Below the pieces are notes generated by a model. That model ran no database searches and was not told the origin of the DNA. It saw only the letters and a list, made by a program, of their open reading frames with translations. A program made the position numbers and the translations under genes. A stretch of 61,735 nt of DNA, filler included, from Actinomycetota bacterium (GTDB lineage: Bacteria; Actinomycetota; Acidimicrobiia; Spongiisociales; UBA4744): NCBI GenBank assembly GCA_013152275.1. It is 7 parts of 7 records of this genome, joined end to end, with 100 filler letters (N's around TTAATTAATTAA, not from the genome) between each part and the next. Parts side by side here need not be neighbours in the genome. Positions count along the whole stretch, not along the records: positions 56,534 to 61,735 come from JAADGS010000009.1; 6 more parts are not named here. One strand, written 5' to 3'. Of the stretch, positions 4,576-61,735 are shown one piece after another; the first letter of the stretch is position 1, and every line of letters starts with the position of its first letter.

Positions 4576-6335
4576 AGAGGCCAGAGGATAGGGATCCCGA
4601 CGAGCAGCATCGCCACGACGACGACGGTGAGTGGCACACCCAGGCGCAGATAGTCGCTGAACCGGTATCCGCCCGGCCCGTACACCATCAGGTTCGTCTG
4701 ATACCCGATCGGGGTGAGGAACGGTGTCGCGGCGGCGACGGCGACACCGAGGGCGAACGCCCGGGGGTTCAACCCGAGTCCTGTGGCGGTGGCCAGCGCC
4801 ACAGGGAGGATCAACAGGGCGGCGGCGTTGTTCGTCACGAGCTCCTTGAGGATCACGGTCGCAATGATGACGCCGGCGAGTGCACCGACCGGCCCGAGCC
4901 CGCCGAACGTGCCAATCATCCAGGTTGCGGCGGTGTCGGCCAGCCCGGACGTCTGCATCCCCGCGGCGATACCGAACGCGGCGGCGATCGTGATGATGAC
5001 ATCCAGGTCGACGGCGGTGCGCGCCTCGGCCGTGGTGACGATCCGTAGCGCCACCAGAGCCGCGGCCCCGAGCAACGCCGCGGTGACGAGTGGTACGAGG
5101 CCGGTGGCCGCCGCGGCGACCATCGCTGCGACGATCAGGCCGGTGAGCGGAGCCCGGCGCCCGGCGACGGGCGGGGCGGCGTCCAGCCGTGCGATCAACG
5201 CGAAGTCCGGACGTTCCCGCCACCGGCGGCCCCAGTCGTGGTCGGCGACGACCAGCAGCGTGTCACCGGGTCGCAGCACGACGTCGCCGAGTTTCGCATC
5301 GATGCGTTGTCCTGCCCGGTGGATCGCCGTGACGACCGCCTGGTAGCGGCCCCGGAACTCGGCCGACCGCAACGTCGTGCCGACGAGCGGCGACGACGTG
5401 CCGATGACGGCCTCGTAGTGGGCGACGTCGGTTGCGTCGAGTCGAGTCATCTGATGATGCTCCGTGGATGCCAACCCCGGGACGGCAATCAGGTCGACGA
5501 CCTGATCGACCCTGCCGACGAACCGGAGTACATCACCGGTGTGCAGCATCGTGTCGCGTCCGACCGGTGTGACCAGCTTGCCGGCCCGCTCGAGCTGGGC
5601 GAGGAACACGCCGCGCAGATGCCGTAGGCCGGCTGCCTCGACGGTGAGACCGTCGAGGTCGGCGAGCACCTGCATCGTGATGTTGAACTGGCGGAACTCC
5701 TCGTCGTCGGCGGCGGCGGGGGACCGCCGGTCCGGCAGCAGCTTCGGAGCGAGGAGGACGATCAGGGCGATCCCGACGACGGCCACAGGCAGGCCGATCT
5801 TGGTGATCTCGAAGAAGCCGAGCGGAGCGTACCCGTCGGCTTCGAGCAGGCCGGAGACGACGATGTTGGTGGCGGTGCCCATCAAGGTGACGACCCCACC
5901 GAGGATCGCGGCGAACGACAATGGCATCAGGTACCTCGACGGTGACTGGCCGCGTCCTTCCGCCCACCGTTCGATCTGGGGGGCGAGCATCGCAACGATC
6001 GGCGTGTTGTTCAGGATCGACGACGCCGCGGTTGTGGGCACGGTGAGCCGGGCGAGGGCGGCGCTCGGACGGTCGCCGTCGCCAAGGACGGTGCGGACGA
6101 GCGGTGCCAACACACCGGTCTTGGCGACTGCGGCGGCGACGATGTAGAGGGCGGCGATCGTTGCGGGGGCGGGGTTGGCGAACCCGGAGAGCGCCTCGGC
6201 CGGGCTGACGATCCCTGCGGTGAGCAGCGCCACCGTGCCGGAGCCGATCGCCGCGGCAGGAGGCAGCATGTCGCGCACCAACACCACGACGACGGCGACG
6301 ACGATTCCGAGGGTGAACCACGCCTGCCAGTTCAT
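4572..6335 (-). CDS. SLC13/DASS permease with two TrkA-C domains (probable sulfate transporter)
   Basis: NNTPIVA, LMPLSFAAILGG..TLMGTATN, TNNAAA, TPIGYQTNLMVYGPGGYRFSDY. Confidence 0.92.
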   Translation of the reverse strand: MNWQAWFTLGIVVAVVVVLVRDMLPPAAAIGSGTVALLTAGIVSPAEALSGFANPAPATIAALYIVAAAVAKTGVLAPLVRTVLGDGDRPSAALARLTVPTTAASSILNNTPIVAMLAPQIERWAEGRGQSPSRYLMPLSFAAILGGVVTLMGTATNIVVSGLLEADGYAPLGFFEITKIGLPVAVVGIALIVLLAPKLLPDRRSPAAADDEEFRQFNITMQVLADLDGLTVEAAGLRHLRGVFLAQLERAGKLVTPVGRDTMLHTGDVLRFVGRVDQVVDLIAVPGLASTEHHQMTRLDATDVAHYEAVIGTSSPLVGTTLRSAEFRGRYQAVVTAIHRAGQRIDAKLGDVVLRPGDTLLVVADHDWGRRWRERPDFALIARLDAAPPVAGRRAPLTGLIVAAMVAAAATGLVPLVTAALLGAAALVALRIVTTAEARTAVDLDVIITIAAAFGIAAGMQTSGLADTAATWMIGTFGGLGPVGALAGVIIATVILKELVTNNAAALLILPVALATATGLGLNPRAFALGVAVAAATPFLTPIGYQTNLMVYGPGGYRFSDYLRLGVPLTVVVVAMLLVGIPILWPL

Positions 6336-8209: not shown

Positions 8210-8334
8210 GCGCGCTTCCTGTGGTATGTCGGTGGTGGGAGTGTAGGTGAATCCGGCCTTCGTGAGGCATCGTTATGGGCGGAGTGCTTGGCCCGGACGT
8301 CGCTACCCTTGCCGCCAACGGATCAGGAGTATTC

Positions 8335-10266
8335 ATGACCACCGAGCAACTTGCCGTCGACACGATCAAAGGCCTCGCCATCGACGCCATCCAGAAGGCC
8401 AACTCGGGTCATCCCGGGGCCCCGATGGGCATGGCCGACATCGCCACGGTGCTCTGGACCAAGTTCCTGAACGTCGATCCCGACGATCCGATGTGGCCGG
8501 ATCGCGACCGGTTCGTGCTCTCCAACGGCCACGCATCGATGCTGCTCTACTCATTGCTGCATCTCAGTGGTTTCCCGGTCACGATGGAGGATCTGCGACA
8601 GTTCCGCCAGTGGGGGTCCCACACGGCGGGGCATCCCGAGATCAGTCACGCGAGAGGGATCGAGATGACCACCGGTCCACTCGGTCAGGGATTCGCCACC
8701 GCGGTCGGCATGGCGATCGCCGAGGAGCACCTGCGGGCGGTCTTCGGCCCCGAGCTCGTGAACCATCGCACCTGGGGGTTCGTCTCGGACGGTGACCTCA
8801 TGGAAGGCATCTCCTCGGAGGCGGCGTCGCTCGCCGGCCATCTGGGACTCGGCAGGCTCATCTACTACTACGACAACAATCACATCACCATCGACGGGAA
8901 CACGTCGATCACCTTCACCGAGGACATTCCCGCCCGGTTCGCCGCCGTGGGATGGCACACGGTCTCCGTGGACGGTCATGACCGGGTCGCGATCGAGGAA
9001 GCGACCCGTGAGGCACTCGTCGTCGCCGATCGGCCCTCGTTGATCATCGCCCGCACGCATATCGGCAACGGTGCGCCCACCAAGCACGACACACCGGGAG
9101 TGCACGGATCGCCGCTGGGCGAGGAGGAGCTTCGTGCAACCAAGGAGCTGATGGGGTTCCCGCCCGACGAGCCGTTCTACGTGCCGGACGGTGTGTACGA
9201 GTTCTTCTCCAAGGCGATGGACCGGGGCCGTGCCGTGCACAAGGCGTGGGAAGAGCGGTTCGAGAGTATCGATGCCGTGACGAGTGGACGCTGGGCGGGC
9301 TACTTCGGTGGCGCGCCGGTTCGGTTGGAGGCACCCGAGTTCGAAGGCAAGATCGCCACCCGGGCCGCCGCGGGCACGGTGTTCGACCAGATCGCCGAGA
9401 AGGTTCCCGGTTTCATCGGCGGCGCCGCCGACCTGGTCGCATCGACCAAGACCGAGATCTCGTTTTCCGGAAGCTTCTCGAAGGAGGATCGGGCGGGTCG
9501 CAACATCCACTTCGGGATTCGTGAGCATGCGATGGGCGCGATCACCAACGGGCTGGCCGTACACGGCGGTCTGCGGCCGTACGGGGCGACGTTCTTCGTG
9601 TTCAGCGACTATATGCGACCGGCGGTGCGCCTTGCCGCGCTCATGGAAGCCGGGAGCATCTTCATCTGGACGCACGACTCGGTGTTCCTCGGTGAGGATG
9701 GGCCGACCCACCAGCCGATCGAGCACCTCGCGTCGCTGCGGGCCATGCCCAACCTGTGGGTGCTGCGCCCCGCGGACGCGACCGAGACGGTCGAGGCGTT
9801 GGAGCTGGCCGTCAACCGGACCGACGGGCCGACCGCACTGGTGCTGACACGGCAGGGGCTCCCTGTGCTGGAGCGGCCCGCCGGAGGCGTCGCCCGCGGC
9901 GGGTATGTGCTGCGCGACGGCGAGGACGTGGTCCTGGTCGCGACCGGATCGGAAGTCCATGTGGCGTTGGGAGCCGCCGAGATGCTGGCCGGCGAGGGCG
10001 TGTCGGCTCGAGTCGTGTCGCTGCCGTCGTGGGAGGCGTTCTTCGCCCAGGATGACGCGTACCGGACATCGGTGCTCGGCGACGGTGTGCCGATCGTCTC
10101 GATCGAGGCCGCCTCGACGTTCGGCTGGGAGCGGATCACCGGTTCGGGCGGTCTCCGAATTGGCATCGACCACTTCGGCGCGTCGGCGCCGGCTTCCGTC
10201 ATCGCCGAGAAATGGGGCTTCACGGCCGAGGCTGTCGCTTCACGAGTGCGGGAGTGGTTGGGGTAG
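8335..10266 (+). CDS. tkt: Transketolase
   Basis: SGHPGAPMG, RDRFVLSNGH, SDGDLMEG, FGIREHAM, GEDGPTHQP; AGGAG RBS before ATG 8335. Confidence 0.97.
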   Translation: MTTEQLAVDTIKGLAIDAIQKANSGHPGAPMGMADIATVLWTKFLNVDPDDPMWPDRDRFVLSNGHASMLLYSLLHLSGFPVTMEDLRQFRQWGSHTAGHPEISHARGIEMTTGPLGQGFATAVGMAIAEEHLRAVFGPELVNHRTWGFVSDGDLMEGISSEAASLAGHLGLGRLIYYYDNNHITIDGNTSITFTEDIPARFAAVGWHTVSVDGHDRVAIEEATREALVVADRPSLIIARTHIGNGAPTKHDTPGVHGSPLGEEELRATKELMGFPPDEPFYVPDGVYEFFSKAMDRGRAVHKAWEERFESIDAVTSGRWAGYFGGAPVRLEAPEFEGKIATRAAAGTVFDQIAEKVPGFIGGAADLVASTKTEISFSGSFSKEDRAGRNIHFGIREHAMGAITNGLAVHGGLRPYGATFFVFSDYMRPAVRLAALMEAGSIFIWTHDSVFLGEDGPTHQPIEHLASLRAMPNLWVLRPADATETVEALELAVNRTDGPTALVLTRQGLPVLERPAGGVARGGYVLRDGEDVVLVATGSEVHVALGAAEMLAGEGVSARVVSLPSWEAFFAQDDAYRTSVLGDGVPIVSIEAASTFGWERITGSGGLRIGIDHFGASAPASVIAEKWGFTAEAVASRVREWLG

Positions 10267-10580
10267 GGATCCAGGTCCCCGGCCTCGCCCTGTGCGGCCC
10301 GGTCGGGTGCGACGACTACGTTCTCGACGGGCAGGGATCACCCTCAGTGAGTGTGCTCGCGCGCTTGGCACTCGCCCTGCGCATCTGCCGGTGACACCGG
10401 GAAGCTGCCATGTCGCAGCGTCCTCTTTCCTCGAATATGCAGGGAGTGTCGAGAGCAACGGCAGTCGGCCGCCGCCCGGTGCCGACGAGCCGAAATCGGA
10501 GCCGCGAACAGTGCACAAATATGTGTATGCTCAATGTCATGCACCGTGCCGACATGGGCGGCTGAGCCGGAGGGATAGTT

Positions 10581-11909
10581 ATGGGTACAACCTCAAAGCG
10601 AGGGTACATTGTCTTGCTCGTAGTGGCCACATTGGTATTCGGGGTGCTCGCCCCGATGGCAGGTGCCCTCTCGCCTTCGACGACGCGGTTGGCGGGTACG
10701 GACCGCTACGGCACTGCGGTCGCGATCTCGCAGGCCGCCTTCCCGACCGGCGCCTCCAACGTGTTCATCGCCAATGGGAGCGGGTTCCCCGACGCGCTCG
10801 CGGGTGGTGTCGCCGCCGCGAACGCCAACGGTCCGATTCTGCTCGTGCAGCAAAACTCGATTCCGGCAGTCACCGCCACAGAACTGACCCGACTGGGACC
10901 CACCGAGATCACGATTCTCGGCGGTACCGCAACGGTGTCGAGCGCCGTGGAGACGGCCCTGTCGACATACGCGGCGACGGTGCGGCGCCTCTGGGGTGCG
11001 GATCGGTTCGCGACGGCCGCTGCGATCGCGAGCGACACGTTCCCGTCCGGTGCCTCCACCGTGGTGTTGGCCGCCGGGTACAACTTCCCTGACGCTCTCG
11101 CCGGTTCGCCTGCTGCCACGAAGCTCAACGCACCGTTGCTGCTGACCCGATCTACCGTGCTGCCGACGGTGACCGCGACGGCCATCACCACGTTGGGTGC
11201 GTCTCGAGTCGTGATCCTTGGTGGCACCATTGCCGTGTCTGCAGGTGTTGAAGCTGCGGTCGGTGCCCTCGCCGGAGTGACATCGGTCGAGCGGTGGGCC
11301 GGTCTCGACCGGTTCGCCACTGCTACGACGATCAGCCAGAAGGAATGGTCCTGTGGGAATTTCACGGTGTATGTGGCCTCCGGTCTCAACTTCCCGGACG
11401 CTCTGGCCGGTGGACCTCCGGCGGGCATAGACGGCGCTCCGATGTTGCTGGTGAAGACCGATTCGGTGCCGACGCCGACGTACGATGAGCTGCGGCGTCT
11501 GCGGGCGGTGGAGGTGTTGATCCTCGGGGGAACCAGCGCAGTGTCGGACACGACCAAGACGGCCATCGACTCGATCTTGGCCATGCCGACGTACAACGAT
11601 GCACCGACGGTCACGATCACATCGCCACCGGACCTGTCGACCTACGTCACCACATGGCAGGGATCGGCGTGGGGGGCGCAGGTCACGTTCACGGCGACGA
11701 CGGACGATGCGAACTGTGATTCGGTCACCGTCACCTGGACGTCGAACGTCGACGGCGCCTTGGGCTCAGGGTCGACGATCTCGCCGACGCTGGAGATCCC
11801 ATTCGGGTTGGATTCCTCGCAGCCCACGATCACCGCAACGGTGACCGATTCGTACGGCGCATCCAGCACCGACTCCATTCAGGTGAAGCTGTTGGTCCCA
11901 TCCCCATAG
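10581..11909 (+). CDS. Secreted surface protein with three cell-wall-binding repeat 2 (CWB2) units and a C-terminal Ig/PKD-like domain
   Basis: Signal peptide; three GxDR(Y/F)...FPDALAG...PxLL...ILGG repeats; APTVTITSP..TWTSNVDG tail. Confidence 0.88.
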   Translation: MGTTSKRGYIVLLVVATLVFGVLAPMAGALSPSTTRLAGTDRYGTAVAISQAAFPTGASNVFIANGSGFPDALAGGVAAANANGPILLVQQNSIPAVTATELTRLGPTEITILGGTATVSSAVETALSTYAATVRRLWGADRFATAAAIASDTFPSGASTVVLAAGYNFPDALAGSPAATKLNAPLLLTRSTVLPTVTATAITTLGASRVVILGGTIAVSAGVEAAVGALAGVTSVERWAGLDRFATATTISQKEWSCGNFTVYVASGLNFPDALAGGPPAGIDGAPMLLVKTDSVPTPTYDELRRLRAVEVLILGGTSAVSDTTKTAIDSILAMPTYNDAPTVTITSPPDLSTYVTTWQGSAWGAQVTFTATTDDANCDSVTVTWTSNVDGALGSGSTISPTLEIPFGLDSSQPTITATVTDSYGASSTDSIQVKLLVPSP

Positions 11910-28840: not shown

Positions 28841-28940
28841 NNNNNNNNNNNNNNNNNNNNNNNNNNNNNNNNNNNNNNNNNNNNTTAATTAATTAANNNN
28901 NNNNNNNNNNNNNNNNNNNNNNNNNNNNNNNNNNNNNNNN
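28841..28940. other. Artificial contig linker (others at 34444-34543, 40039-40138, 45575-45674, 51037-51136, 56434-56533)
   Basis: N44-TTAATTAATTAA-N44, giving stops in all six frames. Confidence 0.99.
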
Positions 28941-34240: not shown

Positions 34241-34544
34241 CGATCTCCTCGGTGCGCGAGCCCGGCTTCGCCGGGGATACGTTCCTGACGGGAGGCTCTT
34301 CTCCCCCTTGGCGCCATGCGTCGGCTTGACGGCCTCCTTCCCGGTTGAGGCGGTGACTGGCTCGTTGGCCTGACGAGACGTCCACGGGGAAGGTCCTACA
34401 CGTTGCCGCGAAGGATTGCTCTCGGCCGATACGTTGGTAGCTTNNNNNNNNNNNNNNNNNNNNNNNNNNNNNNNNNNNNNNNNNNNNTTAATTAATTAAN
34501 NNNNNNNNNNNNNNNNNNNNNNNNNNNNNNNNNNNNNNNNNNNC

Positions 34545-40038: not shown

Positions 40039-40139
40039 NNNNNNNNNNNNNNNNNNNNNNNNNNNNNNNNNNNNNNNNNNNNTTAATTAATTAANNNNNN
40101 NNNNNNNNNNNNNNNNNNNNNNNNNNNNNNNNNNNNNNG

Positions 40140-45359: not shown

Positions 45360-45808
45360 CGGCTCGCGACCCTGACGCCAACCCATGATGCGCTCATCAC
45401 CTCTCCTCCTTACCTATTGGTGTATTCGCCGGAGGACGCTTTCGGGTTCCCACCGTGGGCCCAGATGTGTCGTCACGGGTTCGTGTCGAGGTTGTCGACG
45501 ATGGTGGGGACCGTGTGGGTGGCGTCCCAGACGTGAGTTCCGGCGGGAACCCCGAATGCTGCTTCGAGGAACGTNNNNNNNNNNNNNNNNNNNNNNNNNN
45601 NNNNNNNNNNNNNNNNNNTTAATTAATTAANNNNNNNNNNNNNNNNNNNNNNNNNNNNNNNNNNNNNNNNNNNNTCGTCAGGACCGCGGGTGGTGAGGAG
45701 AACCCGAGGGTGGCGGTGTTTGTCGAGATTGTTGATGATGATGCTCGTGCGGCTGAGATCCTGGCGCCACTTGTCGACGCACTCGGCACCCTGCCCTAGA
45801 ACACCGAC

Positions 45809-50943: not shown

Positions 50944-51136
50944 CGGTTGGCCCTCCTTGTCTGGCCTCATAGTACCGAACCTGGGTTCCGTGCACATGAC
51001 TCAGTGTCTGACAAGCGGACGGGAGGGGGACCGGTTNNNNNNNNNNNNNNNNNNNNNNNNNNNNNNNNNNNNNNNNNNNNTTAATTAATTAANNNNNNNN
51101 NNNNNNNNNNNNNNNNNNNNNNNNNNNNNNNNNNNN

Positions 51137-52549: not shown

Positions 52550-53166
52550 TCCGGCACTTCCGGGATCCGTTCATCCACTCTCGTCGACACGCTCGGCTGC
52601 ATCAGCGAGGCGCTGGACTGGAAGTCCACCACGGGGATCTCCCCGATCGCAGACATCTGCGCCGAAGTGACCCACCCCCCCGCCAGGGCCGGCCACACAT
52701 CGCTGTCGACGACGCGAAGCCACGTCGACGCATCCGGATAGTCGAAGGCCGTCGCTCCCACCTGCACCTGCCCGACCACACCCGGTATATCCCCACTCGC
52801 GTCGACACTCCCATCGAACGATGTCAGCCAGACGCGATCCGGGATGACACGGGCGAGATCGTTGAACAGTTTTCCCCAGGCAACGTCCCTCTCGAGAGCC
52901 GACCGTATCCGTGCCACACCGTCTTCGTATCCGGTCCGCAGGTCCGCGGAGTCGCCAAGCGCGTCGATCTGCTGCTGCGTGGCCTGATTCGCCTGCTTCT
53001 GTGCGATCAACTCGTCTTCGACTCCTTGGGCCTTCCCGCCTTGCCAGTAGGAGACGAGAGCGAGCAGTACGACGTAGAGAATCCCCAGCGTGACCAATCT
53101 GGCGACCTTGCGCCGCGACTCCTTCTTCTGGGCAATCTCTGGCGGCAGCAGGTTGATCGGGCGCAT
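52546..53166 (-). CDS. pilN: Type IV pilus biogenesis protein PilN
   Basis: INLLP motif; TM; LARVIPDRVWLTSF. Confidence 0.9.
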   Translation of the reverse strand: MRPINLLPPEIAQKKESRRKVARLVTLGILYVVLLALVSYWQGGKAQGVEDELIAQKQANQATQQQIDALGDSADLRTGYEDGVARIRSALERDVAWGKLFNDLARVIPDRVWLTSFDGSVDASGDIPGVVGQVQVGATAFDYPDASTWLRVVDSDVWPALAGGWVTSAQMSAIGEIPVVDFQSSASLMQPSVSTRVDERIPEVPE

Positions 53167-54230
53167 CAGGCTTCGCTCCACAGGCCGAGCCCGACTGCGA
53201 CAGGCAGGACCGGCTGCACTTGGGCCAGCTCGGCTTCCGACATACCCAGTTTGCCGAACTTGAGGGTGTCGTCTCCAACGATCCGAACGGCCTCGATGGG
53301 AAGCTCCAACGACTGACCCATCCGGTTGGCCAGGTGTGGGAGGCGTGCACCGTTGCCGGAGATGAGGATCCTGTCGACCGCAGTGCCGCCGGATTCGGAG
53401 CGGTAGTAGTCGATGGAGCCGCGAACCTCTTCGATCAGCGCGTCGGTCTCTTCCGTGAGGGCTCGCTTGCCTTCATCCTCCTCCGAAGCGGCGTCACCGT
53501 CGGGAGTGACTCCCGTCTTGCGCTTCCTTCGCTCGGCTTCCTGGAAGTCGAGCGAGAGCGCCTCGGCAAGGACACGTGTGAACTGCTCGCCACCGATGGG
53601 CACGATACGCAGAAAGCGAACCGTCCCGTTTCGAACGATGGCCACCTGTGTCACACCCGCTCCGATGTTCACCACGGCGCGAGCACCCTCGTCGAGTTGC
53701 AGGTCGGGGCCGACGATCGCCCTGACGAGGGCGAACGCCTGGAGGTCGATGGCCATCGGCTTCGCCCCGACCCCGGAGATGACTTCGAGCACTTCGTTGG
53801 CCATTTCACGCTGCGCGGCGATCACGAGAACGGACAGCATCGCCTCGCCGTCGGGCGTGCTGAACTCCTCCAATGGCACGAAATCGAGGATTGCCTCTTC
53901 GACCGGAATCGGAATGTACTCGGCGGCACGGAACGGCAACGACTCCCTGAGTTCCTCTTCGGACATGTAGGGCACGTCGACCCGACGGACGATGACACGC
54001 TGGTTCGCAATTCCCACGACCACGCGTTTGTGAGGGAGCTTTGCCGTCTTCCACAGCTGGGTCAGAGCGTCCCGTACCGTCGACGGCTCAACGATCTCAC
54101 CGGCAACAACGGCACCGATGGGCAGTGACACCTGTCCGTAACGTTTGAGGACAGGTACCCCTTTTCCCGTCTGCACCACTGCAGCCCGGACCGCACTTGT
54201 GCCGATATCCAGACCGACATTGATCGCCAT
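53166..54230 (-). CDS. pilM: Type IV pilus assembly protein PilM
   Basis: VGLDIGTSAVR; YIPIPVEEAILDF; ISGNGARL; VAVGLGL. Confidence 0.94.
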   Translation of the reverse strand: MAINVGLDIGTSAVRAAVVQTGKGVPVLKRYGQVSLPIGAVVAGEIVEPSTVRDALTQLWKTAKLPHKRVVVGIANQRVIVRRVDVPYMSEEELRESLPFRAAEYIPIPVEEAILDFVPLEEFSTPDGEAMLSVLVIAAQREMANEVLEVISGVGAKPMAIDLQAFALVRAIVGPDLQLDEGARAVVNIGAGVTQVAIVRNGTVRFLRIVPIGGEQFTRVLAEALSLDFQEAERRKRKTGVTPDGDAASEEDEGKRALTEETDALIEEVRGSIDYYRSESGGTAVDRILISGNGARLPHLANRMGQSLELPIEAVRIVGDDTLKFGKLGMSEAELAQVQPVLPVAVGLGLWSEA

Positions 54231-54423
54231 GACTCTCCGCCCTGGCCGGGCAGGCTCCCGGCCTGTTGCGACTGACCCACAGCCGCACGCACCGAATTAC
54301 ATCGGTGTCATTTGGAGCCTACCAACGCGCCGCGGCGCAGGCAAGCAAAGAGGTGGAACGCGCGTCGCGCACCATGCTTCGTGCTCGACACCGTCGCGGC
54401 CGGATACGGCCCGACATGCCCCG

Positions 54424-55188
54424 TTACGTCCGGAGATACCAGGACAGGAGCGACTGCCCCACCGGGATCGCGATCCACGCTCCGGCGATGAGGGCGGGGC
54501 CGAACGCGATCGGATCCTTCCTCCCACGAAGGCGTGTCACCAGGAGCGTGATCGCTGCCAGGCCACCCAAGGAGAAGGCCAGGAAGATGCCCGCCACCAA
54601 GGTGCCCCAGGATGCATACGCCAGAAACAGCCCGAGGAAGAAAGCCAGTTTGACGTCCCCCATGCCGAACCCGCCGCGAGCCGCCAGCGCGATGATGAAC
54701 AGCAGAACGAAGTAGATCGCACCGCCCATGAGTGCTCGAGGCAGATTCTCGACGGCGTGATCTGCGTACGCTCCCCCGGCCAACAGCAGCAGACCGACGA
54801 TCGTCCCGGGGTACAGGATGCGATTGGGGATTCGGTGGTGGTCGAGGTCGGTGAGCGCGAGAACGATCGTCACCGCCGCAAACCACAGGTACGGGATCAG
54901 GATCCATTGCTGCCCGATGAACCAGGCGGACGCCCCGAACACCCCTGCGGTGAAGACTTCGACGAGCGGGTAGCGGATCGAGATCCTTTCTCCACAATCA
55001 CGGCAGCGGCCCCCCAGCAGCAGCCAGGAGAGAACGGGGATGTTGTCCCATGGGCGAATCGGATGGCCGCAGTGCGGGCAGGCGGACGGCGGGTTGACCA
55101 CCGATAGCCCGAGTGGGATGCGGTAGGCGACGACGTTGAGAAAGGATCCGACCATCAGGCCTGCCAGGGCAATCGTTGCGGAGAGCAT
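54424..55188 (-). CDS. pilD: Prepilin peptidase
   Basis: GSFLNVV.YR.P, CPHC...CRDC, IS.RYPLVE, GMGDVKL, FGPAL. Confidence 0.95.
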   Translation of the reverse strand: MLSATIALAGLMVGSFLNVVAYRIPLGLSVVNPPSACPHCGHPIRPWDNIPVLSWLLLGGRCRDCGERISIRYPLVEVFTAGVFGASAWFIGQQWILIPYLWFAAVTIVLALTDLDHHRIPNRILYPGTIVGLLLLAGGAYADHAVENLPRALMGGAIYFVLLFIIALAARGGFGMGDVKLAFFLGLFLAYASWGTLVAGIFLAFSLGGLAAITLLVTRLRGRKDPIAFGPALIAGAWIAIPVGQSLLSWYLRT

Positions 55189-55190
55189 CG

Positions 55191-55646
55191 CTACCAATCG
55201 AGCCCGGCGCAATCGGCCATGTCGTCGACATCGCTCCGCGCAGTGCCGAGACACTTGTACAGGCCGGCGCTCGCGCCGGCACGCACGTGCCGAAGGCCGA
55301 ACCATGTTCCCGAGTTGGAACGGGCATAGAGGAGGACGGAGTCGTCGACGTTCACGACGGTTGCCACCACGATATGAATCGAGTCGTCCGCAGCACCGCT
55401 CCAGTCGAGGCTCGGCTCCAGGGCCGAGAGGCTCGCCCCGTTCGCCGTGTAGATGCCAGCGTCTGCAGCAAAGACCTCCTCCGTCTTCTGACCGGTGACC
55501 AGCGTAGCCTGGGCGGCGGTGTCCTGGGCTCTGTGTCTGGCGCCCAGCAGTGTGGGCACAGCGATGCTCAGCAGTATCGCCATGATCGCGAGCACGACCA
55601 GCAACTCGGTGAGCGAGAACCCTGCGTCGTGCCTGTCCTGGTGCAT
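55191..55646 (-). CDS. Type IV pilin (second or minor)
   Basis: Class III signal AG|FSLTELLVVLAIMAILLSIAVP. Confidence 0.9.
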   Translation of the reverse strand: MHQDRHDAGFSLTELLVVLAIMAILLSIAVPTLLGARHRAQDTAAQATLVTGQKTEEVFAADAGIYTANGASLSALEPSLDWSGAADDSIHIVVATVVNVDDSVLLYARSNSGTWFGLRHVRAGASAGLYKCLGTARSDVDDMADCAGLDW

Positions 55647-55655
55647 ATCTCTATC

Positions 55656-55682
55656 TCATCGGCCTCCGGCGGGGAGACCTGA
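55656..55682 (-). promoter_or_regulatory. Candidate sigma28/WhiG-type promoter
   Basis: TCAGG-N14-GCCGATGA on the minus strand, 10 bp before the pilin ATG. Confidence 0.55.
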
Positions 55683-55693
55683 GATGAACGGAA

Positions 55694-55719
55694 GAGAGGG
55701 TGGCCGTGGCCACCCTCTC
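55694..55719 (-). terminator. Terminator after the major pilin
   Basis: GAGAGGGTGGCC-N2-GGCCACCCTCTC palindrome. Confidence 0.7.
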
Positions 55720-55741
55720 AATCGTATGTTCGTGAGCTGTA

Positions 55742-56218
55742 TTACCAGCTGGACTGGTTGCACTCGGCAACCGTGTCGATGGCCGCAGCCGTTGTAGCCG
55801 AGTTGTAGGTCGTCCCACCACCCGACGTGTCGTCTGCGATGCAGAAGAACGTACCGGATGCGCTCTCGGTGACGAGAACGACGGTGGAGGCGGTGGCTAC
55901 GGGAATCCCGATCTTCGACGTGCTGACGTTGGCAAGAGTATCGAAGTCGAGGCTCGGTTCGAGCGCCTCATATGCCGTGATCGTACCGGCGATATTCGTG
56001 CTCAGGTAGGTCTCTCCATCCACATAGAACACCTTCGCGGCGGTAAGCCCGTTGCGAAGATTGCTCTGCGCGGCCCGATCCTGTGCCTTCTGACGTGCAC
56101 CCAGGAATGTCGGGATGGCGATCGCCATGAGAATGGCAATGATCAGCACGACCACCATCAACTCGACAAGGGTGAAGCCTTCGTCGCTGTGAAGCCTTTG
56201 ATGGATCTTCTCCATCAT
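55742..56218 (-). CDS. pilA: Type IV major pilin
   Basis: EG|FTLVELMVVVLIIAILMAIAIP; two C-terminal Cys; AGGAG RBS. Confidence 0.92.
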   Translation of the reverse strand: MMEKIHQRLHSDEGFTLVELMVVVLIIAILMAIAIPTFLGARQKAQDRAAQSNLRNGLTAAKVFYVDGETYLSTNIAGTITAYEALEPSLDFDTLANVSTSKIGIPVATASTVVLVTESASGTFFCIADDTSGGGTTYNSATTAAAIDTVAECNQSSW

Positions 56219-56259
56219 GATTGCTCTCCTTCCGGGCCGTCTCTCGACCCTCGAACGGT

Positions 56260-56287
56260 GTATCGGTCTCCATCCGCGTTTGGTTGA
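56260..56287 (-). promoter_or_regulatory. Candidate sigma28/WhiG-type promoter
   Basis: TCAAC-N15-ACCGATAC upstream of pilA. Confidence 0.45.
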
Positions 56288-56537
56288 GTGTTTTTCGCGA
56301 CGTTCGTCACGTATCGACGGGTTCCCGAGAGCCATGTATTTCGAGTTTCGTACCTCGAGGCAGGATCGATACGAGACCGCGGGGCAATACCTCTATTGGT
56401 CCCCCCAGGGAGCGAAGCGACCGTTGGGGGGAANNNNNNNNNNNNNNNNNNNNNNNNNNNNNNNNNNNNNNNNNNNNTTAATTAATTAANNNNNNNNNNN
56501 NNNNNNNNNNNNNNNNNNNNNNNNNNNNNNNNNAGAG

Positions 56538-57128
56538 GTGATCTTCGACGGGTTCTCACACCTGTTCCCTGCAGGGGTGGTGACGGGGGTGACGGGCAGG
56601 TCGGGGTCGGGCAAGTCGACGTTGTTGTATCTGGTCGGGTTGTTGCTGACCCCGTGGTCGGGACAGATCCGGTATGGGCAGGTGGAGGCCGGTGGACTGT
56701 CGGATGCGGCACGCTCGGCGATACGCGCTTCGAGGGTGGGGTTCGTGTTTCAAGATGCGGTGTTAGATCCGTCCCGGAGCGTGTTGGACAACATGATCGA
56801 GGGGGCCGTGTATGCGGGTCTGGGTCGGGTGCAAGCGACCGAACGGGCGACCGTGTTGGCGGACAGGTTCGAGGTGGGGTTGCGGCTGGGGCACAAGCCG
56901 GGGGAGGTGTCGGGTGGCCAGGCGCAACGTGTCGCGTTGTGTCGGGCGTTAGTGAACCGTCCCGACATAATCTTGGCGGATGAACCGACCGGGAACCTGG
57001 ACGATGTGACCGCCCGTGTCGTGATCGACGCGCTGGTCGGGTTGGCACACGACCAGGAGGCGACGGTGATCATCGTGTCGCACGATCACACGGTTGCTGC
57101 CGCCTGTGACGAGGTGGTGGAACTGTGA
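56538..57128 (+). CDS. ABC transporter ATPase (LolD/MacB-like), 5' partial
   Basis: GRSGSGKST, GFVFQ, VSGGQAQR, LADEPTGNLD, SHD. Confidence 0.93.
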   Translation: MIFDGFSHLFPAGVVTGVTGRSGSGKSTLLYLVGLLLTPWSGQIRYGQVEAGGLSDAARSAIRASRVGFVFQDAVLDPSRSVLDNMIEGAVYAGLGRVQATERATVLADRFEVGLRLGHKPGEVSGGQAQRVALCRALVNRPDIILADEPTGNLDDVTARVVIDALVGLAHDQEATVIIVSHDHTVAAACDEVVEL

Positions 57129-58225
57129 GACGCCTCGCAGGGCTGGTCGCCGAGGCGGTACGGATGATGGCGGCCCGTCCGGTGTCGTCGACGGTGACCG
57201 GGCTGATCGTGGCTGCGGTGTGTGGGGTGATCCTGTCAACGACCGGACAGTCGGTGCAGGCGGAACGGCAAGTCCTGGCCCGTATCGACGATGCCGGCAC
57301 CCGGAGTGTGATCATCACCGATACCAACGGGTCCGCCTGGATTCACGCCTCGGCGGTGGATCGGATCGGGCGCCTGTCGGGTGTCGAGTGGGCGATCGGG
57401 TTGGGTCCGGCTGTCGATGTGCACGCCGCCGGTATCCCCGGTGGCAACCCAGCGGCGGTGCGGGCCGTCTACGGTACCCTTCCGGTCGAGGTGACCACCT
57501 CAGGGTGGGACCAGACACCCGGCACGGTTCTGGTCGGCCCCGTCGCACAAACCACCCTCGGACTCGAAGTCCCCGCCGGTGGGGTCGCCACCAGCGACAA
57601 CGTCGACTATGCGGTCGTCGGCTGGTTCAATGCGACCGACCCGCTCGGGTTCCTCAACCGGTCGCTGATCGCCGCACCCGACAGCGGCGATGTCGATCCG
57701 ATCATCCGTGCCATCTACGTGCTCACCCGACAACCAGAAGACGTTGCAGCTGTCGCCGATGCCGTCGTCGGGATCGTTGATCCCGAGGACCCGACAGCGG
57801 TCGGAATCCAAACCTCCGAAACGATCGTCGAGATCCGCAAAGCCGTCCAAGGAGAACTCGGCCGCTACTCCAGACGGCTCGTCACCGTCATCCTTGCCGT
57901 CGGGTTGATCCTCGTCGGATTGAACATCTACGGATCTGTCACCACCGCCCGACGAGACTACGGGCGACGCCGCGCCCTCGGCGCATCACGACCCGACATC
58001 ATCACCCTCGTCACCACCCAAACCGTCACCGTCGCCCTCATCGGCGCCCTTACCGGCAGCGTGGCCGGTGGGGCTGTCATCTGGAAACTCACCGGCACCC
58101 CACCCGACCTGTCGTTCACCACCGCTATCGCCACTCTCGCCATCCTCACCGCAGGCATCGCCGCCATCCCACCCGCCGTCATCGCCGCCTGGCGCGACCC
58201 CGTCTCCATCCTCCGAGTCCCTTAG
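57125..58225 (+). CDS. FtsX/MacB-like ABC permease, close paralog of 40205-41305
   Basis: Same architecture; many identical stretches; ends AAWRDPVSILRVP. Confidence 0.9.
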   Translation: MRRLAGLVAEAVRMMAARPVSSTVTGLIVAAVCGVILSTTGQSVQAERQVLARIDDAGTRSVIITDTNGSAWIHASAVDRIGRLSGVEWAIGLGPAVDVHAAGIPGGNPAAVRAVYGTLPVEVTTSGWDQTPGTVLVGPVAQTTLGLEVPAGGVATSDNVDYAVVGWFNATDPLGFLNRSLIAAPDSGDVDPIIRAIYVLTRQPEDVAAVADAVVGIVDPEDPTAVGIQTSETIVEIRKAVQGELGRYSRRLVTVILAVGLILVGLNIYGSVTTARRDYGRRRALGASRPDIITLVTTQTVTVALIGALTGSVAGGAVIWKLTGTPPDLSFTTAIATLAILTAGIAAIPPAVIAAWRDPVSILRVP

Positions 58226-58391
58226 ATCCAGTTCTCCTGGAGTCTCCGCGCGACAACACGCCTGATCTGGACACAGACAGGGTATGGCGATGCTTTGGGA
58301 AGGAAGGAGAGGAGGGAGTATGAGACGACTCATTGTCACAATTCTGGTCATGGCCATGATCATGACCATGGCGGCTGCACCAGCGGTGGCG
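58202..58391 (+). repeat. 190-bp cassette-head repeat A (permease tail, intergenic region, signal peptide)
   Basis: Aligns without gaps to 59672-59861; about 9 mismatches by manual count. Confidence 0.95.
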
Positions 58392-58626
58392 ACCCCGGGA
58401 AGTGACTACTTCGCGACGAGGTATTGCACGATCTATCAGGGAGTGTTTATCTACAGCCGGGCCGCCGGCTAGCGTCTTGTTCGAGTGGGAAGGGCATTTC
58501 ACGTACAACTACACCCCCACAGCGGCCTACTGGGGCGTCCAGACGAACGACCCCGAAACGTGGGCGCGGATCAGCTGGGACAGCTACAAGATCACCGACG
58601 GGGCATACTGCAAGAGTGTCCTCTAG
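58320..58626 (+). pseudogene. Secreted peptide precursor 1, +1 frameshift at about 58470
   Basis: MRRLIVTILVMAMIMTMAAAPAVA|TPGSDYFATRYC...SRAAG*, continuing in the +1 frame as SVLFEWEG...GAYCKSVL*. Confidence 0.75.
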
Positions 58627-58630
58627 CCAG

Positions 58631-59206
58631 ATGCAGAGCATGCTGCGGAGCGTTGGCGCCGTTTACCTTCTCTTGATACTCGCGACGGTGACGGCCTGTA
58701 GCCGATCAGATGAATCGCCGGCAGCACGTGTCGGCACGAACGCTGGGGCCACCGAGGATTCGATTTCTCGGTGGCCCCCCGTGTCGCTGCTGCCGGACGA
58801 GTTCTTCCCCCGCCTCGTCAAGTGTCTGAATGATCACGGCTATGCGGTGACACTGAATCCTGACTACACGATCTCCGGGCATGGGAGTGTCGATTCGGAG
58901 CAGTTCCTCCAGACACGTGACGAGTGTGCTCGGGAGATTGACCCGGGGTACGTGGAGGATCCGCCGCCGTTCACCGAGACGCAGCTCGAGAGCTTCTATT
59001 CGTACGTCAAGGCCGAGGCGGCGTGTTTCGCGGAGCTGGGGTACCCGCTGGTGCAGGTGCCGTCGTTCGATAAGTTCTTGTCAGACCTGCCGGTGCTGTT
59101 CGACCCCGTCGCGGTGCTCATCGAAGATCTTGGAGTGTCTCCCACCAACGAGGAAATCGCCACTTGCAGATGGCGGAACAAGCCGGAGTGGCTCGTAGCA
59201 CCGTAG
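58631..59206 (+). CDS. 4-Cys lipoprotein 1
   Basis: Lipobox VTAC; KCLNDHGY..DEC..ACFAELGY..ATC. Confidence 0.82.
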   Translation: MQSMLRSVGAVYLLLILATVTACSRSDESPAARVGTNAGATEDSISRWPPVSLLPDEFFPRLVKCLNDHGYAVTLNPDYTISGHGSVDSEQFLQTRDECAREIDPGYVEDPPPFTETQLESFYSYVKAEAACFAELGYPLVQVPSFDKFLSDLPVLFDPVAVLIEDLGVSPTNEEIATCRWRNKPEWLVAP

Positions 59207-59243
59207 CGGCGGAGAGTGCATGCTCTTGACAGAGGGATCGAAG

Positions 59244-59309
59244 ATGAGGACAGTCGTAATCCTCGTGTTGGTCATCGCTCTGGCGGCCGTGATCGCACTG
59301 CCCGCCTGA
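59244..59309 (+). pseudogene. Orphan signal-peptide remnant (probable dead precursor)
   Basis: GAGGG RBS; MRTVVILVLVIALAAVIALPA*, reading on as ATVWKFG. Confidence 0.45.
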
Positions 59310-59429
59310 GCGACTGTGTGGAAGTTCGGATCTACCACCGTCCTCGAAGAGGTGGCGGCAGCGGTCAAACGCCGTAGTTCGCGGCTTCAGAGATTCCGTC
59401 ACGCGCGAGTAGCCCGCCCGATGAGATGA

Positions 59430-59654
59430 CTCCCGCCGCGCTCAGCCTGACGAACCCAATTCCGCATCGTCTCAGTCGAACAGCCAATCTTGCCAGCGAT
59501 CGACGTGATCGCCGCCCACTCCGACTCGTACTCCACACGATGCTCCAACACGCGACGAACCGCACGTTCGCGCACCTCCAGTGAATACCTTGATGGTCTA
59601 GACATGACTCCATCCTCCCAAGGATCAGAGTGATATTCCCCAGGTTTGGTGGAG
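59430..59654 (-). mobile_element. IS3-family fragment (OrfA N-terminus and terminal IR-like sequence)
   Basis: [18 protein letters not shown]...[31 protein letters not shown] from 59605; TGATATTCCCCAGGTTTGGTGGAG at 59631. Confidence 0.85.
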
Positions 59655-59671
59655 TCGGGATAGTTGAATCG

Positions 59672-59861
59672 GTCTCCATCCTCCGAGTCCCCTAGATCCA
59701 GTTCTCCTGGAGTCTCCGCGCGACAACACGCCTGATCTGGACACAGACAGGGTATGGCGGTGCTTTGGGAAGGAAGGAGAGGAGAGAGTATGAGACGACT
59801 CGTTGTTACGATTCTGGTCATAGCCATGATCATGACCATGGCGGCTGCACCAGCAGTAGCG
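59672..59861 (+). repeat. 190-bp cassette-head repeat B
   Basis: Direct repeat of 58202-58391, offset 1470 bp. Confidence 0.95.
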
Positions 59862-60089
59862 GAAGGGGGTGGCACTATGAACTGCGGGAGCGGGGGATAC
59901 GCGACTACCCACTCGTACACGTCGGGAGGGAGCAATCACTTCCTAGCCCCCCACTGGGTTGCGGGGTTCACGACCCAACAGGTGCGGACGGTGTACTGGG
60001 CCCCAGTTTACTCGTACGGGTGGACCGATTGGTCACTCTACGTAAGAGGGACCTACTACTCGAGCTGGGGGACCTGCGATGTGCAGTAG
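59790..60089 (+). CDS. Secreted peptide precursor 2 (99 aa)
   Basis: MRRLVVTILVIAMIMTMAAAPAVA|EGGGTMNC...SWGTCDVQ; Trp/Tyr/Gly/Ser/Thr-rich; strong RBS. Confidence 0.85.
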   Translation: MRRLVVTILVIAMIMTMAAAPAVAEGGGTMNCGSGGYATTHSYTSGGSNHFLAPHWVAGFTTQQVRTVYWAPVYSYGWTDWSLYVRGTYYSSWGTCDVQ

Positions 60090-60092
60090 GTG

Positions 60093-60791
60093 ATGCAGGT
60101 GGTGGGTGGCGGCATCGAGAGGGCTCTGGCGTGGTTCTGCCTGCTGGTGTTCCTGGCGGCAGCTTCGGCATGCACGCGACAGACGGCGGATGCCCGAGCG
60201 ATCGAGGTTTCGACACCCTCCACATCCTCGACGTCTGAGACGGTTGTTAGTACGACCGGTGATGGGGATGCTGGATTCTCGTGGGCTGCGCAGGTCCCGG
60301 ACTGGCCGCCCGGGTATGTCGATCCAGGGAACGGTCCGTACCCCGTCGAGGGCGTAGAGCATGTGAAGTATCGGATCGCCTGTCTCGAATACCTCGGTTT
60401 CGCGGTCACGCCAACGGTTGACAGGCTCAGCTACATGTTCGACTACAGGGGATTGACTCCCGAGGACGCGGTCGCGGTCGACCAAGAGTGCTATCAGCGG
60501 GCCATCGACATCGGCCTCGTTCGCGAGTATCGGGACATACCAACGGATCTGAGCCTCAAGTACGAGACAGAGATGCAGACCCAACGGTGCCTGGAGGAGC
60601 ATGGGTTTCGCGTCGTGGACCCCCCAACGCTCGACTCGTACATCGACAGTGGCGGGACTAATTGGAGCGCCTTCGACGCCTACGGGGGACGTCTGGACGT
60701 GTTTTCTACAGAAGGCATGACCTTGGACGAGCGCGAGTGGCTGGATGCAGAGATCGCCTGTCCTCCGGGTGAAGAGATCCCCGGCGGGTAG
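60093..60791 (+). CDS. 4-Cys lipoprotein 2
   Basis: Lipobox ASAC; ACLEYLGF..QEC..RCLEEHGF..IAC. Confidence 0.82.
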   Translation: MQVVGGGIERALAWFCLLVFLAAASACTRQTADARAIEVSTPSTSSTSETVVSTTGDGDAGFSWAAQVPDWPPGYVDPGNGPYPVEGVEHVKYRIACLEYLGFAVTPTVDRLSYMFDYRGLTPEDAVAVDQECYQRAIDIGLVREYRDIPTDLSLKYETEMQTQRCLEEHGFRVVDPPTLDSYIDSGGTNWSAFDAYGGRLDVFSTEGMTLDEREWLDAEIACPPGEEIPGG

Positions 60792-61003
60792 CGGATCCCG
60801 TCTGTCGATGACCTTTCGAGCATGGGCGAGCGACAGTCAAACGGTGTCTGGCCCAAGAGGGACTCCGACTATCTGCAACTCACCAAAGAACAAACCCGAG
60901 CATCTCGCGAACCACTACTGGGAACCGCAACTCGAACCCTGATGTAGAGGGCGGGCGGGAGTCCACGCGAGACAAGTCGCCCGGGTAGGGAGGCTTCCAA
61001 GCC

Positions 61004-61305
61004 GCCACCGACCCGCTCGCGTTCTTGAACCGGTCGTTGCTCGCCGCAGCCGACCCGACGATCCCCGATCCGACACTGCGGGTCATCTACGTGCTCACCC
61101 GACGACCAGAAGACGTCGCGGTCGCCCTCGCCGGTGCCATCGCAGGAGCAGTCATCGGCGGAACGTCATCTGGCGACTCACCGGCGGCCCACCCGACCTG
61201 GCGTTCACCACCGCCATCGCCACCCTCGCTGCCGGCATCGCCGCCATCCCACCCGCAACTATCGCCGCCTGGCGCGACCCCATCTCCATCCTCTGAATCC
61301 CCTGA
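61004..61305 (+). pseudogene. Internally deleted remnant of the ABC permease 3' half (head of cassette 3)
   Basis: TDPLAFLNRSLLAA, IYVLTRRPEDVA, AAWRDPISIL*IP; deletions and frameshifts. Confidence 0.85.
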
Positions 61306-61598
61306 ATGTCCTTCTGTCGAAATCAGCGCGCGACAACAGGTCTGATCCGTACACAAACACAGTGTGGCAGCGATGGTGTTCGTTTCCGGTGAACCGGTTG
61401 CCCGGACAGGCAAGGAAGCGGCCGTCTCCGAAGGAGGGCAGCGGAGGTCTTCTGGACGGCCGGTCATCGGCCCGTACTCGAGGGGGCCGACTTGCTGGAA
61501 GTAGTGAGACGACGGTGCCGCTGGCGCACTGCCCGCTACCCGGAAAGTGGCAGGTTGGTGATGCCTATTGGAACGATGGCGTCCAGGGAAGGGAGGAG

Positions 61599-61735
61599 AT
61601 GATGAGGCGACTCATGGTCACGGTAACGGTCCTGGCGATGCTCATGGTGTTGGCGGCCGCACCAGCACTTGCGGCGAATGTGTCCGCCAATTGCGGAACC
61701 GGCGGCTTCTTCTACACACGCGGCACCGCGGACTA
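61599..61735 (+). CDS. Secreted peptide precursor 3 (3' partial)
   Basis: GGGAGGAG RBS; MMRRLMVTVTVLAMLMVLAAAPALA|ANVSANCGTGGFFYTRGTAD. Confidence 0.8.
   Translation, partial: MMRRLMVTVTVLAMLMVLAAAPALAANVSANCGTGGFFYTRGTAD

Follow-up and report, generated by a model that had tools for sequence, protein, structure and literature searches.

The stretch of DNA analysed here (the window, 61,735 nucleotides (nt) in length) comes from an uncultured hydrothermal-vent Actinomycetota bacterium of the class Acidimicrobiia (lineage UBA4744, GenBank assembly GCA_013152275.1; G000 below), and its last part, positions 56534-61735, carries a row of genes for small secreted peptides with two cysteines and for four-cysteine lipoproteins, behind the ATPase and the permease of a MacB-type pump. 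The genome is a metagenome bin, and this part is the entire contig C43 (5202 bp), one of 100 contigs in the 3.07-Mb assembly. An earlier note had described the genes of the ATP-binding cassette (ABC) system and three tandem units behind them; C43 is a separate contig, the start of which cuts the ATPase gene. Its features are as follows, in positions of the window:

56538-57128, plus strand: ABC ATPase, 5' end lost at the contig start, 196 amino acids (aa) kept (PF00005, E 2.2e-25, 90.3 bits)
57125-58225, plus strand: FtsX/MacB-type permease, 366 aa (PF02687, 34.5 bits against a cut-off of 25.5)
58202-58391, plus strand: head 1, found by repeat comparison, composed of the last 24 nt of the permease gene, a 94-nt spacer with a purine-rich ribosome-binding site and the 24-codon Sec signal of peptide 1
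58320-58472, plus strand: peptide 1, first part, signal and 26 residues, with the stop codon TAG at 58470-58472 (reading of the open reading frame (ORF))
58447-58626, plus strand: peptide 1, second part, in the +1 frame (tblastn E 4.3e-9, 51% identity over 45 aa to locus L010; one continuous frame in locus L018)
58631-59206, plus strand: lipoprotein 1, 191 aa, with lipobox V-T-A-C and a four-Cys core domain (alignment)
59399-59671, minus strand: fragment of an IS3-family insertion sequence (IS), 5' end with part of orfA (PF01527 (HTH_Tnp_1), 32.1 bits against a cut-off of 24.1)
59672-59861, plus strand: head 2, a copy of head 1 (181/190 positions identical)
59790-60089, plus strand: peptide 2 precursor, intact ORF of 99 aa, mature part 75 aa, with Cys 8 and Cys 72 of the mature part
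60090-60791, plus strand: lipoprotein 2, about 232 aa, start GTG 60090 or ATG 60093, with a signal, a low-complexity Ser/Thr linker and a four-Cys core (alignment)
60992-61302, plus strand: permease pseudogene, or head 3 (tblastn; direct repeats D4, D6 and D7)
61599-61735, plus strand: peptide 3 precursor, first 45 codons, continued on contig C20 (91-nt overlap)

Peptide 2 is intact, and its precursor confirms a mature part of about 75 aa with one Cys near each end, as had been noticed from the sequence. Peptide 1, in contrast, does not form the intact ORF that the earlier note assumed: its frame stops after 26 mature residues, and the remainder lies in the +1 frame. Its N-terminal part is 48% identical over 23 aa to an intact relative in G003, a genome of the same family but another genus, where the order of permease, intact type-1 peptide and lipoprotein-1-type gene matches that of C43; the type is also intact, in one frame, in G031, which belongs to another family of the order. 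Peptide 1 is a frameshifted pseudogene of the peptide type that is intact in these two genomes. A contig from one of the public sequencing runs (X1) spans the break (58355-58661) with no differences, and no indels are listed in any run, so that the break is real in the data and no slip of the assembly, although X1 may be the source sample. The two pieces score only 2.6 and 1.6 bits, which is non-significant, against the family profile, and the family membership of peptide 1 consequently rests on its intact relatives.

The mature peptides had been called unalignable outside their shared features. This holds for the DNA, but as proteins they form one very divergent family, with mature parts 17-49% identical to peptide 2; a relative in G012, paired with a lipoprotein-2-type gene, is 49% identical. 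The precursors measure 93-111 aa and their signals end in A-x-A, while the mature parts comprise 67-86 residues (14-28% aromatic, 24-41% Gly/Ser/Thr, isoelectric point (pI) 4.6-8.7). Their alignment contains an invariant Cys near the N-terminus and a second one, nearly invariant, at a distance of 1-10 residues from the C-terminus; a Trp and a Gly are likewise almost constant. Export through the Sec pathway with cleavage after A-x-A is predicted for these peptides, and the two cysteines would probably be joined in a disulfide.

No family was obtained for the peptides from sequence searches of Pfam, NCBIfam or the PDB, in which the PDB profile rows covered only the signal region or were due to chance. 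A word-index search of 5.8 billion proteins returned 19 peptides and 12 lipoproteins, and both named ones are called 'hypothetical protein'; in the ESM Atlas the best clusters for peptide 5, encoded on contig C20, reach 0.84 and are unnamed. On 41 relatives of the genome our peptide profile (A6) recovered only its own source sequences or near copies, in 6 of the 41 genomes. Because it misses the type-1 peptides present in G003 and G031, profile-based peptide counts are lower bounds, and for this reason the notion that lipoproteins greatly outnumber peptides was dropped.

A lipoprotein gene follows two of the three peptide genes in the window as well as the peptide genes on contigs C20, C12, C51 and C62. 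The spacing of at most 5 bp described earlier is correct: lipoprotein 1 begins 4 nt after the stop of the peptide 1 frame and lipoprotein 2 0-3 nt after peptide 2. In these proteins the lipobox Cys is followed by a low-complexity linker and then by a strongly acidic core (about 140 residues, pI 4.1-4.7), in which C-L-x-x-x-G-F/Y occurs twice. The doubled C...G(Y/F)...C motif that the earlier note had seen in two copies is a family-wide character, with four invariant Cys in 28 of 28 aligned core domains. The column of the lipobox Cys is common to 10 of 11 aligned sequences (V-T-A-C, V-S-G-C, A-A-G-C), and lipoprotein 2, with A-S-A-C, lies two columns off. By this alignment the signal ends in the lipobox Cys, as in bacterial lipoproteins generally, and lipidation of that Cys is predicted.

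A search with a profile of the lipoprotein core retrieved 3716 cluster representatives at E<=1e-3 and 2250 at E<=1e-10. Four of ten clusters looked up are named, all as 'hypothetical protein', and derive from metagenome-assembled genomes (MAGs) of Acidimicrobiia and Propionicimonas; 13 of 13 matches are devoid of a Pfam domain. The lipoproteins likewise gave no family in sequence searches of Pfam, NCBIfam or the PDB, so that neither protein matches a family of these curated collections. A Propionicimonas lipoprotein finds 30 clusters at 0.9 or above in the ESM Atlas, all of which lack a Pfam family. For lipoprotein 2 an AlphaFold2 model has a helical core at a mean predicted local distance difference test (pLDDT) of 71; Foldseek gave no PDB match at E<=0.001 and VIA-align a best Z of 4.8 against 48,161 chains, an absence that does not establish a new fold.

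The pump genes of C43 combine an FtsX-type permease domain with a separate ABC ATPase, which is the make-up of MacB-type, or type VII, ABC pumps. The top PDB matches of the permease are weak (MacB 5gko, E 0.0056; Streptococcus pneumoniae 5xu1_M, E 0.0069); permease paralogues are encoded on C37 (79% aa identity) and C12 (60%). For the ATPase the top NCBIfam rows are LolD (154 bits) and the ABC protein of the lactococcin 972 group (TIGR03608, 142 bits against a cut-off of 254.85), both far under their cut-offs. As C43 starts inside the ATPase gene, whatever gene precedes it is missing from the contig; at the paralogous locus on C12 an adaptor gene lies directly before ATPase and permease (PF01471, 49.9 bits; HlyD_3, 21.3 bits, slightly below the cut-off of 22.2). 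What had been called an ABC exporter is accordingly a MacB/FtsX-type pump, with a peptidoglycan-binding adaptor in paralogous and related loci, and differs from classical peptide exporters; the peptides themselves have signals for the Sec pathway.

A Propionicimonas MAG, from another class, possesses in a row a Sec peptide with the terminal Cys pair, the lipoprotein, a peptidoglycan-binding adaptor, the ATPase and the permease. The same five-gene order is found in G033, and contig C62 of the present genome carries peptide, lipoprotein and adaptor in this order. Among nine loci from six carrier genomes outside the family of the C43 genome, the lipoprotein gene is directly followed by adaptor and ATPase in eight, and a Sec peptide with terminal Cys precedes it in seven (six recognised by pattern, one by eye), from which it follows that the pair belongs to the pump operon. 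The ancestral and canonical unit is this five-gene operon with the pair in front of the pump, and C43 represents a derived state with extra pairs behind the permease.

The lipoprotein core occurs at E<=1e-8 in 8 of 401 genomes that sample the phylum evenly, with at most ten candidates scored per genome. Among the 41 close relatives a strong lipoprotein match (best E<=1e-14) was found in 14. A full-length lipoprotein profile (A4) had seemed to match all 41, and most of its weak rows cover the signal and linker part only, which is why only best matches at E<=1e-14 are counted. In G135, a complete genome, four copies lie apart from one another and every one has a pump; two of these copies (L031 and L043) consist of lipoprotein and pump, with no peptide gene within 600-800 nt upstream, and such operons may be resistance-only versions of the module.

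Long arrays exist in G009, G018 and G033. In the two-contig genome G033 (C1:177000-196999) the array begins directly after rpoA-rpsD-rpsK-rpsM and comprises two adaptor genes and a fragment, ATPase, permease, about eight peptides and about nine lipoproteins; two small ORFs resembling helix-turn-helix (HTH) proteins (8319-8798 and 10356-10826) stand just ahead of the adaptor genes and may encode regulators of the system. In the arrays of G009 (C7:594000-612786) and G018 (C5:503000-514060), frameshifted pieces of lipoprotein, adaptor and permease genes abound: where the locus is large, its decay is rapid.

In the genome of the window itself, the array goes on beyond C43. Over its final 91 nt C43 is identical to the end of contig C20, and the partner of unit 3, which had been expected beyond the window, is found there. 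C20 carries the rest of peptide 3, lipoprotein 3, peptide 4, lipoprotein 4, a permease tail, peptide 5 with two lipoproteins, and a longer IS3 copy with orfA and orfB-like ORFs. Further members of the two families are scattered over other contigs: C12 bears, beside its adaptor-ATPase-permease row, a divergent peptide-lipoprotein pair and a lone lipoprotein, C51 a peptide with two lipoproteins, and C98 two lone lipoproteins, one of them broken. Copies of lipoprotein 1 are 68% identical on C98 and 54% identical on C12.

Whether peptides and lipoproteins belong together can be read from 19 pairs in eight genomes. The lipoproteins co-vary with the payloads, a point that the earlier note had proposed to check: for 14 of the 19, the closest relative of the peptide and that of the lipoprotein belong to one and the same pair, and the Mantel correlation (Pearson 0.83, Spearman 0.36) was reached by 1 of 5000 permutations. 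These figures are inflated by kinship and linkage, and what they demonstrate is the inheritance of pairs as units rather than contact between the two proteins. Types recur across genera and families, type 1 in G000, G003 and G031, type 2 in G000 and G012, and the type on C62 in G033. Pairwise ratios of non-synonymous to synonymous substitution (dN/dS) within types are 0.15-0.33 for peptides, 0.15-0.26 for lipoproteins and 0.22-0.44 for pump genes, with dS of about 1 or above. The types are old and under purifying selection; pairwise dN/dS is blind to a few fast sites.

The head repeat of units 1 and 2 had been put at about 95% identity, and it indeed amounts to 95.3% (9 mismatches; blastn E 4.6e-83). 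The observation that identity ends at the signal-peptidase site is likewise accurate, and far beyond chance: the right edge lies just past the A-V-A codons, after which about 25% remains (22-27% ungapped identity in 30-225 nt rightward; 23-35% in 30-120 nt leftward). Head 2 is a copy of the permease 3' end as described, but the permease part is only 24 nt long and abuts the IS3 fragment, the outer end of which touches the first base of the head. This fragment matches, in blastn, features annotated as IS3 family transposase; its positions 59632-59671 are 95% identical over 40 nt to an IS end on C69, and 59451-59630 are 83% identical to the IS3 copy on C20. Unit 3 does start with a permease remnant, and the description of it as a decayed head is to be corrected to a permease pseudogene, the pieces of which match permease residues 166-218 and 318-366, whereas the N-terminal half and residues of about 219-317 are gone.

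With head 2 abutting an IS3 end and head 3 being a permease pseudogene, the heads are bounded on the left by scars where pump genes have been lost. These permease-tail heads are what deletion and IS3 insertion have left of duplicated operons, rather than the built-in recombination site that the permease tail and leader had been taken for, and the 95% pair is best explained by a single recent event of recombination or conversion. Payloads do vary behind a shared head: G000 and G002, of the same genus, share a segment of peptide 4, lipoprotein 4 and permease tail that is 91% identical, behind which G000 has the peptide-5 unit and G002 a different unit of the peptide-3/4 kind. A conserved leader with a variable payload is nevertheless no rule of the family, because peptide 5 and its relative on C51 differ in the opposite manner (signal 42%, mature part 77% identical); the pattern reflects a local recombination event.

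Two side observations concern signals and heads. Between lipoprotein 1 and the IS3 fragment a 21-codon ORF (59245-59310, plus strand) resembles a bare signal peptide, with a hydrophobic run and a stop; 30 nt of it match the signal of peptide 3 at 73% similarity (repeat D9), and the ORF may be all that is left of a peptide gene. Another type of head, about 190 nt past the permease stop, is common to C37 (1164-1352), C20 (minus strand, about 4525-4700) and G002 at 76-87%; on C37 no peptide gene was seen behind it.

Several known systems are related in logic to the one described here. Lactococcin 972 is likewise an unmodified Sec-signal protein of similar size, encoded beside an ABC ATPase and a membrane component, and its system is not known to include a lipoprotein. 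Propionicin T1 of Propionibacterium, another Sec-dependent bacteriocin encoded beside an ABC-like gene, may be a relative. Kinship with lactococcin 972, which the earlier note had cited as a parallel, is not borne out: PF09683 yielded no row for ten peptides at E up to 1-5 and TIGR01653 no row either, a six-frame search of the whole genome with PF09683 gave a single sub-threshold match off these loci (C100, E 0.127, 14.9 bits), and the ATPase scores below the cut-off of TIGR03608 and higher with LolD. Lactococcin 972 is moreover described as cysteine-free (PMC8538875), in contrast to the conserved terminal Cys pair of the peptides here. Orphan modules of contact-dependent growth inhibition (CDI) and Rhs systems, the logic of which had also been invoked, resemble the array in that a variety of toxin-like genes and genes for their partners stand in a row, the downstream units being headed by short homologous stubs. 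They differ in that no large delivery protein exists here, that the whole mature protein varies and only the signal is shared, and that the stubs are remnants of a neighbouring pump gene and not of the toxin gene, with only one head pair bearing a recent recombination.

Another parallel is offered by the self-immunity systems of nisin and subtilin. NisI is a two-domain lipoprotein that binds nisin and cooperates with the ABC transporter NisFEG; in NisI/SpaI with NisFEG/SpaFEG, a lipoprotein of two similar halves is proposed to bind its own secreted peptide, the transporter forming a second protective layer that acts from outside the membrane (PMC8538875). The acidic cores with their internal two-fold motif invite comparison with this precedent, but no sequence match to NisI or SpaI was found in the PDB profile search, nor any immunity protein among the VIA-align rows shown for the pLDDT 71 model. 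The peptides here are unmodified Sec-signal proteins of about 75 residues and not lanthipeptides, the pump is of the MacB/FtsX type with an adaptor and not LanFEG, and binding by the lipoprotein is in our case conjectural. YknXYZ of Bacillus, a MacB-type pump with a peptidoglycan-binding adaptor, protects against SDP, a Sec-dependent and disulfide-bonded peptide on which it acts from outside the membrane (PMC5985334). YknWXYZ and the MacAB-like Spr0693-0695 of S. pneumoniae share with the five-gene operon the MacB-type permease, the separate ATPase and the peptidoglycan-binding membrane-fusion adaptor in cells that lack a classical outer membrane (PMC5985334; PMC5768738); the similarity is weak (E of about 0.006), a YknW-like membrane protein is absent here, and the pump operon here includes the peptide gene and that of a cognate lipoprotein, both in multiple copies. 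The Sec- and Dsb-dependent enterotoxin STII is a substrate of MacAB-TolC; this case together with Aat and dispersin shows that MacB-type pumps move small Sec-delivered proteins oxidised outside the cytoplasm (PMC5985334). Those are Gram-negative three-part pumps with an outer-membrane duct, with neither a cognate lipoprotein nor polymorphic arrays.

We favour, at a rough probability of 0.45, the interpretation that the peptides are secreted bacteriocin-like toxins, with the lipoproteins as type-specific antidotes and the adaptor/MacB pump as a further protection. The small two-Cys proteins would act outside the cell, and each would be bound and neutralised, on the external side of the membrane, by the lipoprotein encoded with it. 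The role of the pump and its wall-binding adaptor would be to hold the toxin away from the producer membrane or to drive it out through the wall. The array would most likely have grown by tandem duplication of whole operons, surplus pump genes being lost afterwards, and at least one recent recombination would have copied the 190-nt head between units. This reading is suggested by the architecture, by the type-specific pairing and by a patchy, multi-copy, IS-associated spread of the kind seen in accessory conflict genes (8 of 401 genomes, many copies per carrier, adjoining IS3 elements). It is further suggested by the lone lipoproteins on C98 and C12 and by the broken peptide 1 next to an intact lipoprotein 1, and it has precedents in NisI/NisFEG, in YknXYZ acting against SDP and in MacAB with STII. 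Several points weigh against it. The peptides are near-neutral to acidic, whereas many Gram-positive bacteriocins are cationic; Pfam, NCBIfam and PDB profile searches assign them to no toxin family; and the AlphaFold2 model of mature peptide 2, built from a 15-row alignment, has a pLDDT of 42.7, too poor for a structure search, so that the fold offers no clue. As dN/dS of peptides and lipoproteins is no higher than that of the pump genes, an arms race is not evident at this coarse level. In most genomes every pair has a pump of its own, which would fit a pump with its cargo equally well, and in G033 peptides and lipoproteins are present at about 1:1 (8 to 9, broken ones included), so that a large surplus of lone immunity genes is not general. 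Finally, linked genes co-diverge regardless of any contact between their products.

As the main alternative, the same operon could serve export without antagonism, the lipoprotein handing a Sec-delivered protein to the adaptor/MacB pump for release through the wall, where it may be a signal, a surface or matrix protein, or a binder of metals or nutrients. The integration of the pair into the pump operon in several lineages (the lipoprotein-adaptor-ATPase row of eight among nine loci), the four copies of G135 with a pump each, the purifying selection on both partners, and the export by MacB-type pumps of Sec-delivered small disulfide proteins such as STII and the 10-kDa dispersin (PMC5985334) are all in keeping with such a role. 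We nevertheless regard it as rather unlikely, given that a lipoprotein serving only its own cargo would hardly account for lone lipoproteins or for an intact lipoprotein 1 next to a broken peptide 1, that two of the nine distant loci have lipoprotein and pump without a peptide, and that many pairs per pump in the C43 lineage, together with the patchy and IS-associated occurrence, resemble accessory conflict genes. A role in recognition, with polymorphic secreted ligands and lipoproteins as surface receptors for kin or self recognition or for signalling without killing, is improbable. It would agree with the type-specific pairing of a secreted protein with a membrane-anchored partner, with old and stable types common to several genera and with dN/dS below 1, but no kinase, regulator or signal-relay gene is consistently found beside the pairs in the loci examined, where small HTH-like ORFs occur only in G033. 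A lipoprotein devoid of transmembrane or cytoplasmic parts cannot signal alone, and a dedicated ATP-driven pump is unexpected for a ligand-receptor pair.

It has also to be considered that the cassette order on C43 is an artefact in which heads or strain variants were misjoined, since the source is a metagenome bin of 100 contigs. The C43 region is present in three public runs from one hydrothermal-vent study, and the earlier note had asked whether reads span the repeats. Run-specific contigs assembled at k=31 break inside both heads (58211-58355 and 59759-59825) and leave the linkage across them unconfirmed, but the junction between IS3 fragment and head 2 is bridged by one such contig (59499-59759), and 59825-61674 is covered in one piece by single contigs in two runs. 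At the end of contig C78 (15628-16182, minus strand) lies the gene of a lipoprotein that matches lipoprotein 3 at 95% identity; whether a nearly identical duplicate or a variant from another strain in the bin, it hints at a strain mixture or a further copy. Contig ends of the assembly overlap by exactly 91 nt, whereas the longest identical run shared by heads 1 and 2 is 67 nt; we infer a final k of 91, at which the heads are distinct paths. As the order of permease, type-1 peptide and type-1 lipoprotein is moreover repeated in G003, a misjoined cassette order is very improbable.

Six artificial spacers of the form N run, TTAATTAATTAA, N run (28841-28940, 34444-34543, 40039-40138, 45575-45674, 51037-51136 and 56434-56533) chain short contigs together, so that gene neighbourhood is not readable across them. 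The last one (56434-56533, without strand) joins two contigs, and C43 begins to its right. On the contig to its left, a type IV pilus or pseudopilus cluster (53166-56335, minus strand) contains a PilM-like ORF, one that resembles a prepilin peptidase and two pilin-like ORFs with the N-terminus of a prepilin; it has no relation to the peptide and lipoprotein array. On C43 an Rfam search gave nothing at E<=1, and scans for promoters (1 found, 0.9 expected) and terminators (2 found, 2.1 expected) remained at chance level.

The logic of a secreted peptide, a lipoprotein partner and an ABC pump is already known; both protein families and the five-gene operon are without a curated model, and within the literature library searched no paper describing this gene set was found. 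A broader picture, which we put forward more tentatively than the toxin-antidote reading at its centre, is that of an undescribed warfare module of actinobacteria, in which disulfide-clamped toxins, two-repeat lipoprotein antidotes and a wall-spanning MacAB-like pump form old and stable types, and in which some Acidimicrobiia have stacked libraries of types through operon duplication, pump loss and recombination at the junction of pump tail and leader. The pairs are small and easily expressed, and cognate versus non-cognate protection is directly testable. The role of MacB-type pumps and wall-binding adaptors in Gram-positive bacteria is an open question (PMC5985334), and if the toxin-antidote reading is true, this would be a MacB-type pump of a single-membrane bacterium with a known protein substrate and a dedicated partner lipoprotein. 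It would also add a new class of ribosomal, unmodified protein antibiotics with their antidotes, from a phylum known mostly for small-molecule antibiotics. As the lipoprotein family is large (2250 representatives) and has neither a name nor a domain model, a functional result, however modest, would provide an annotation for thousands of genes.

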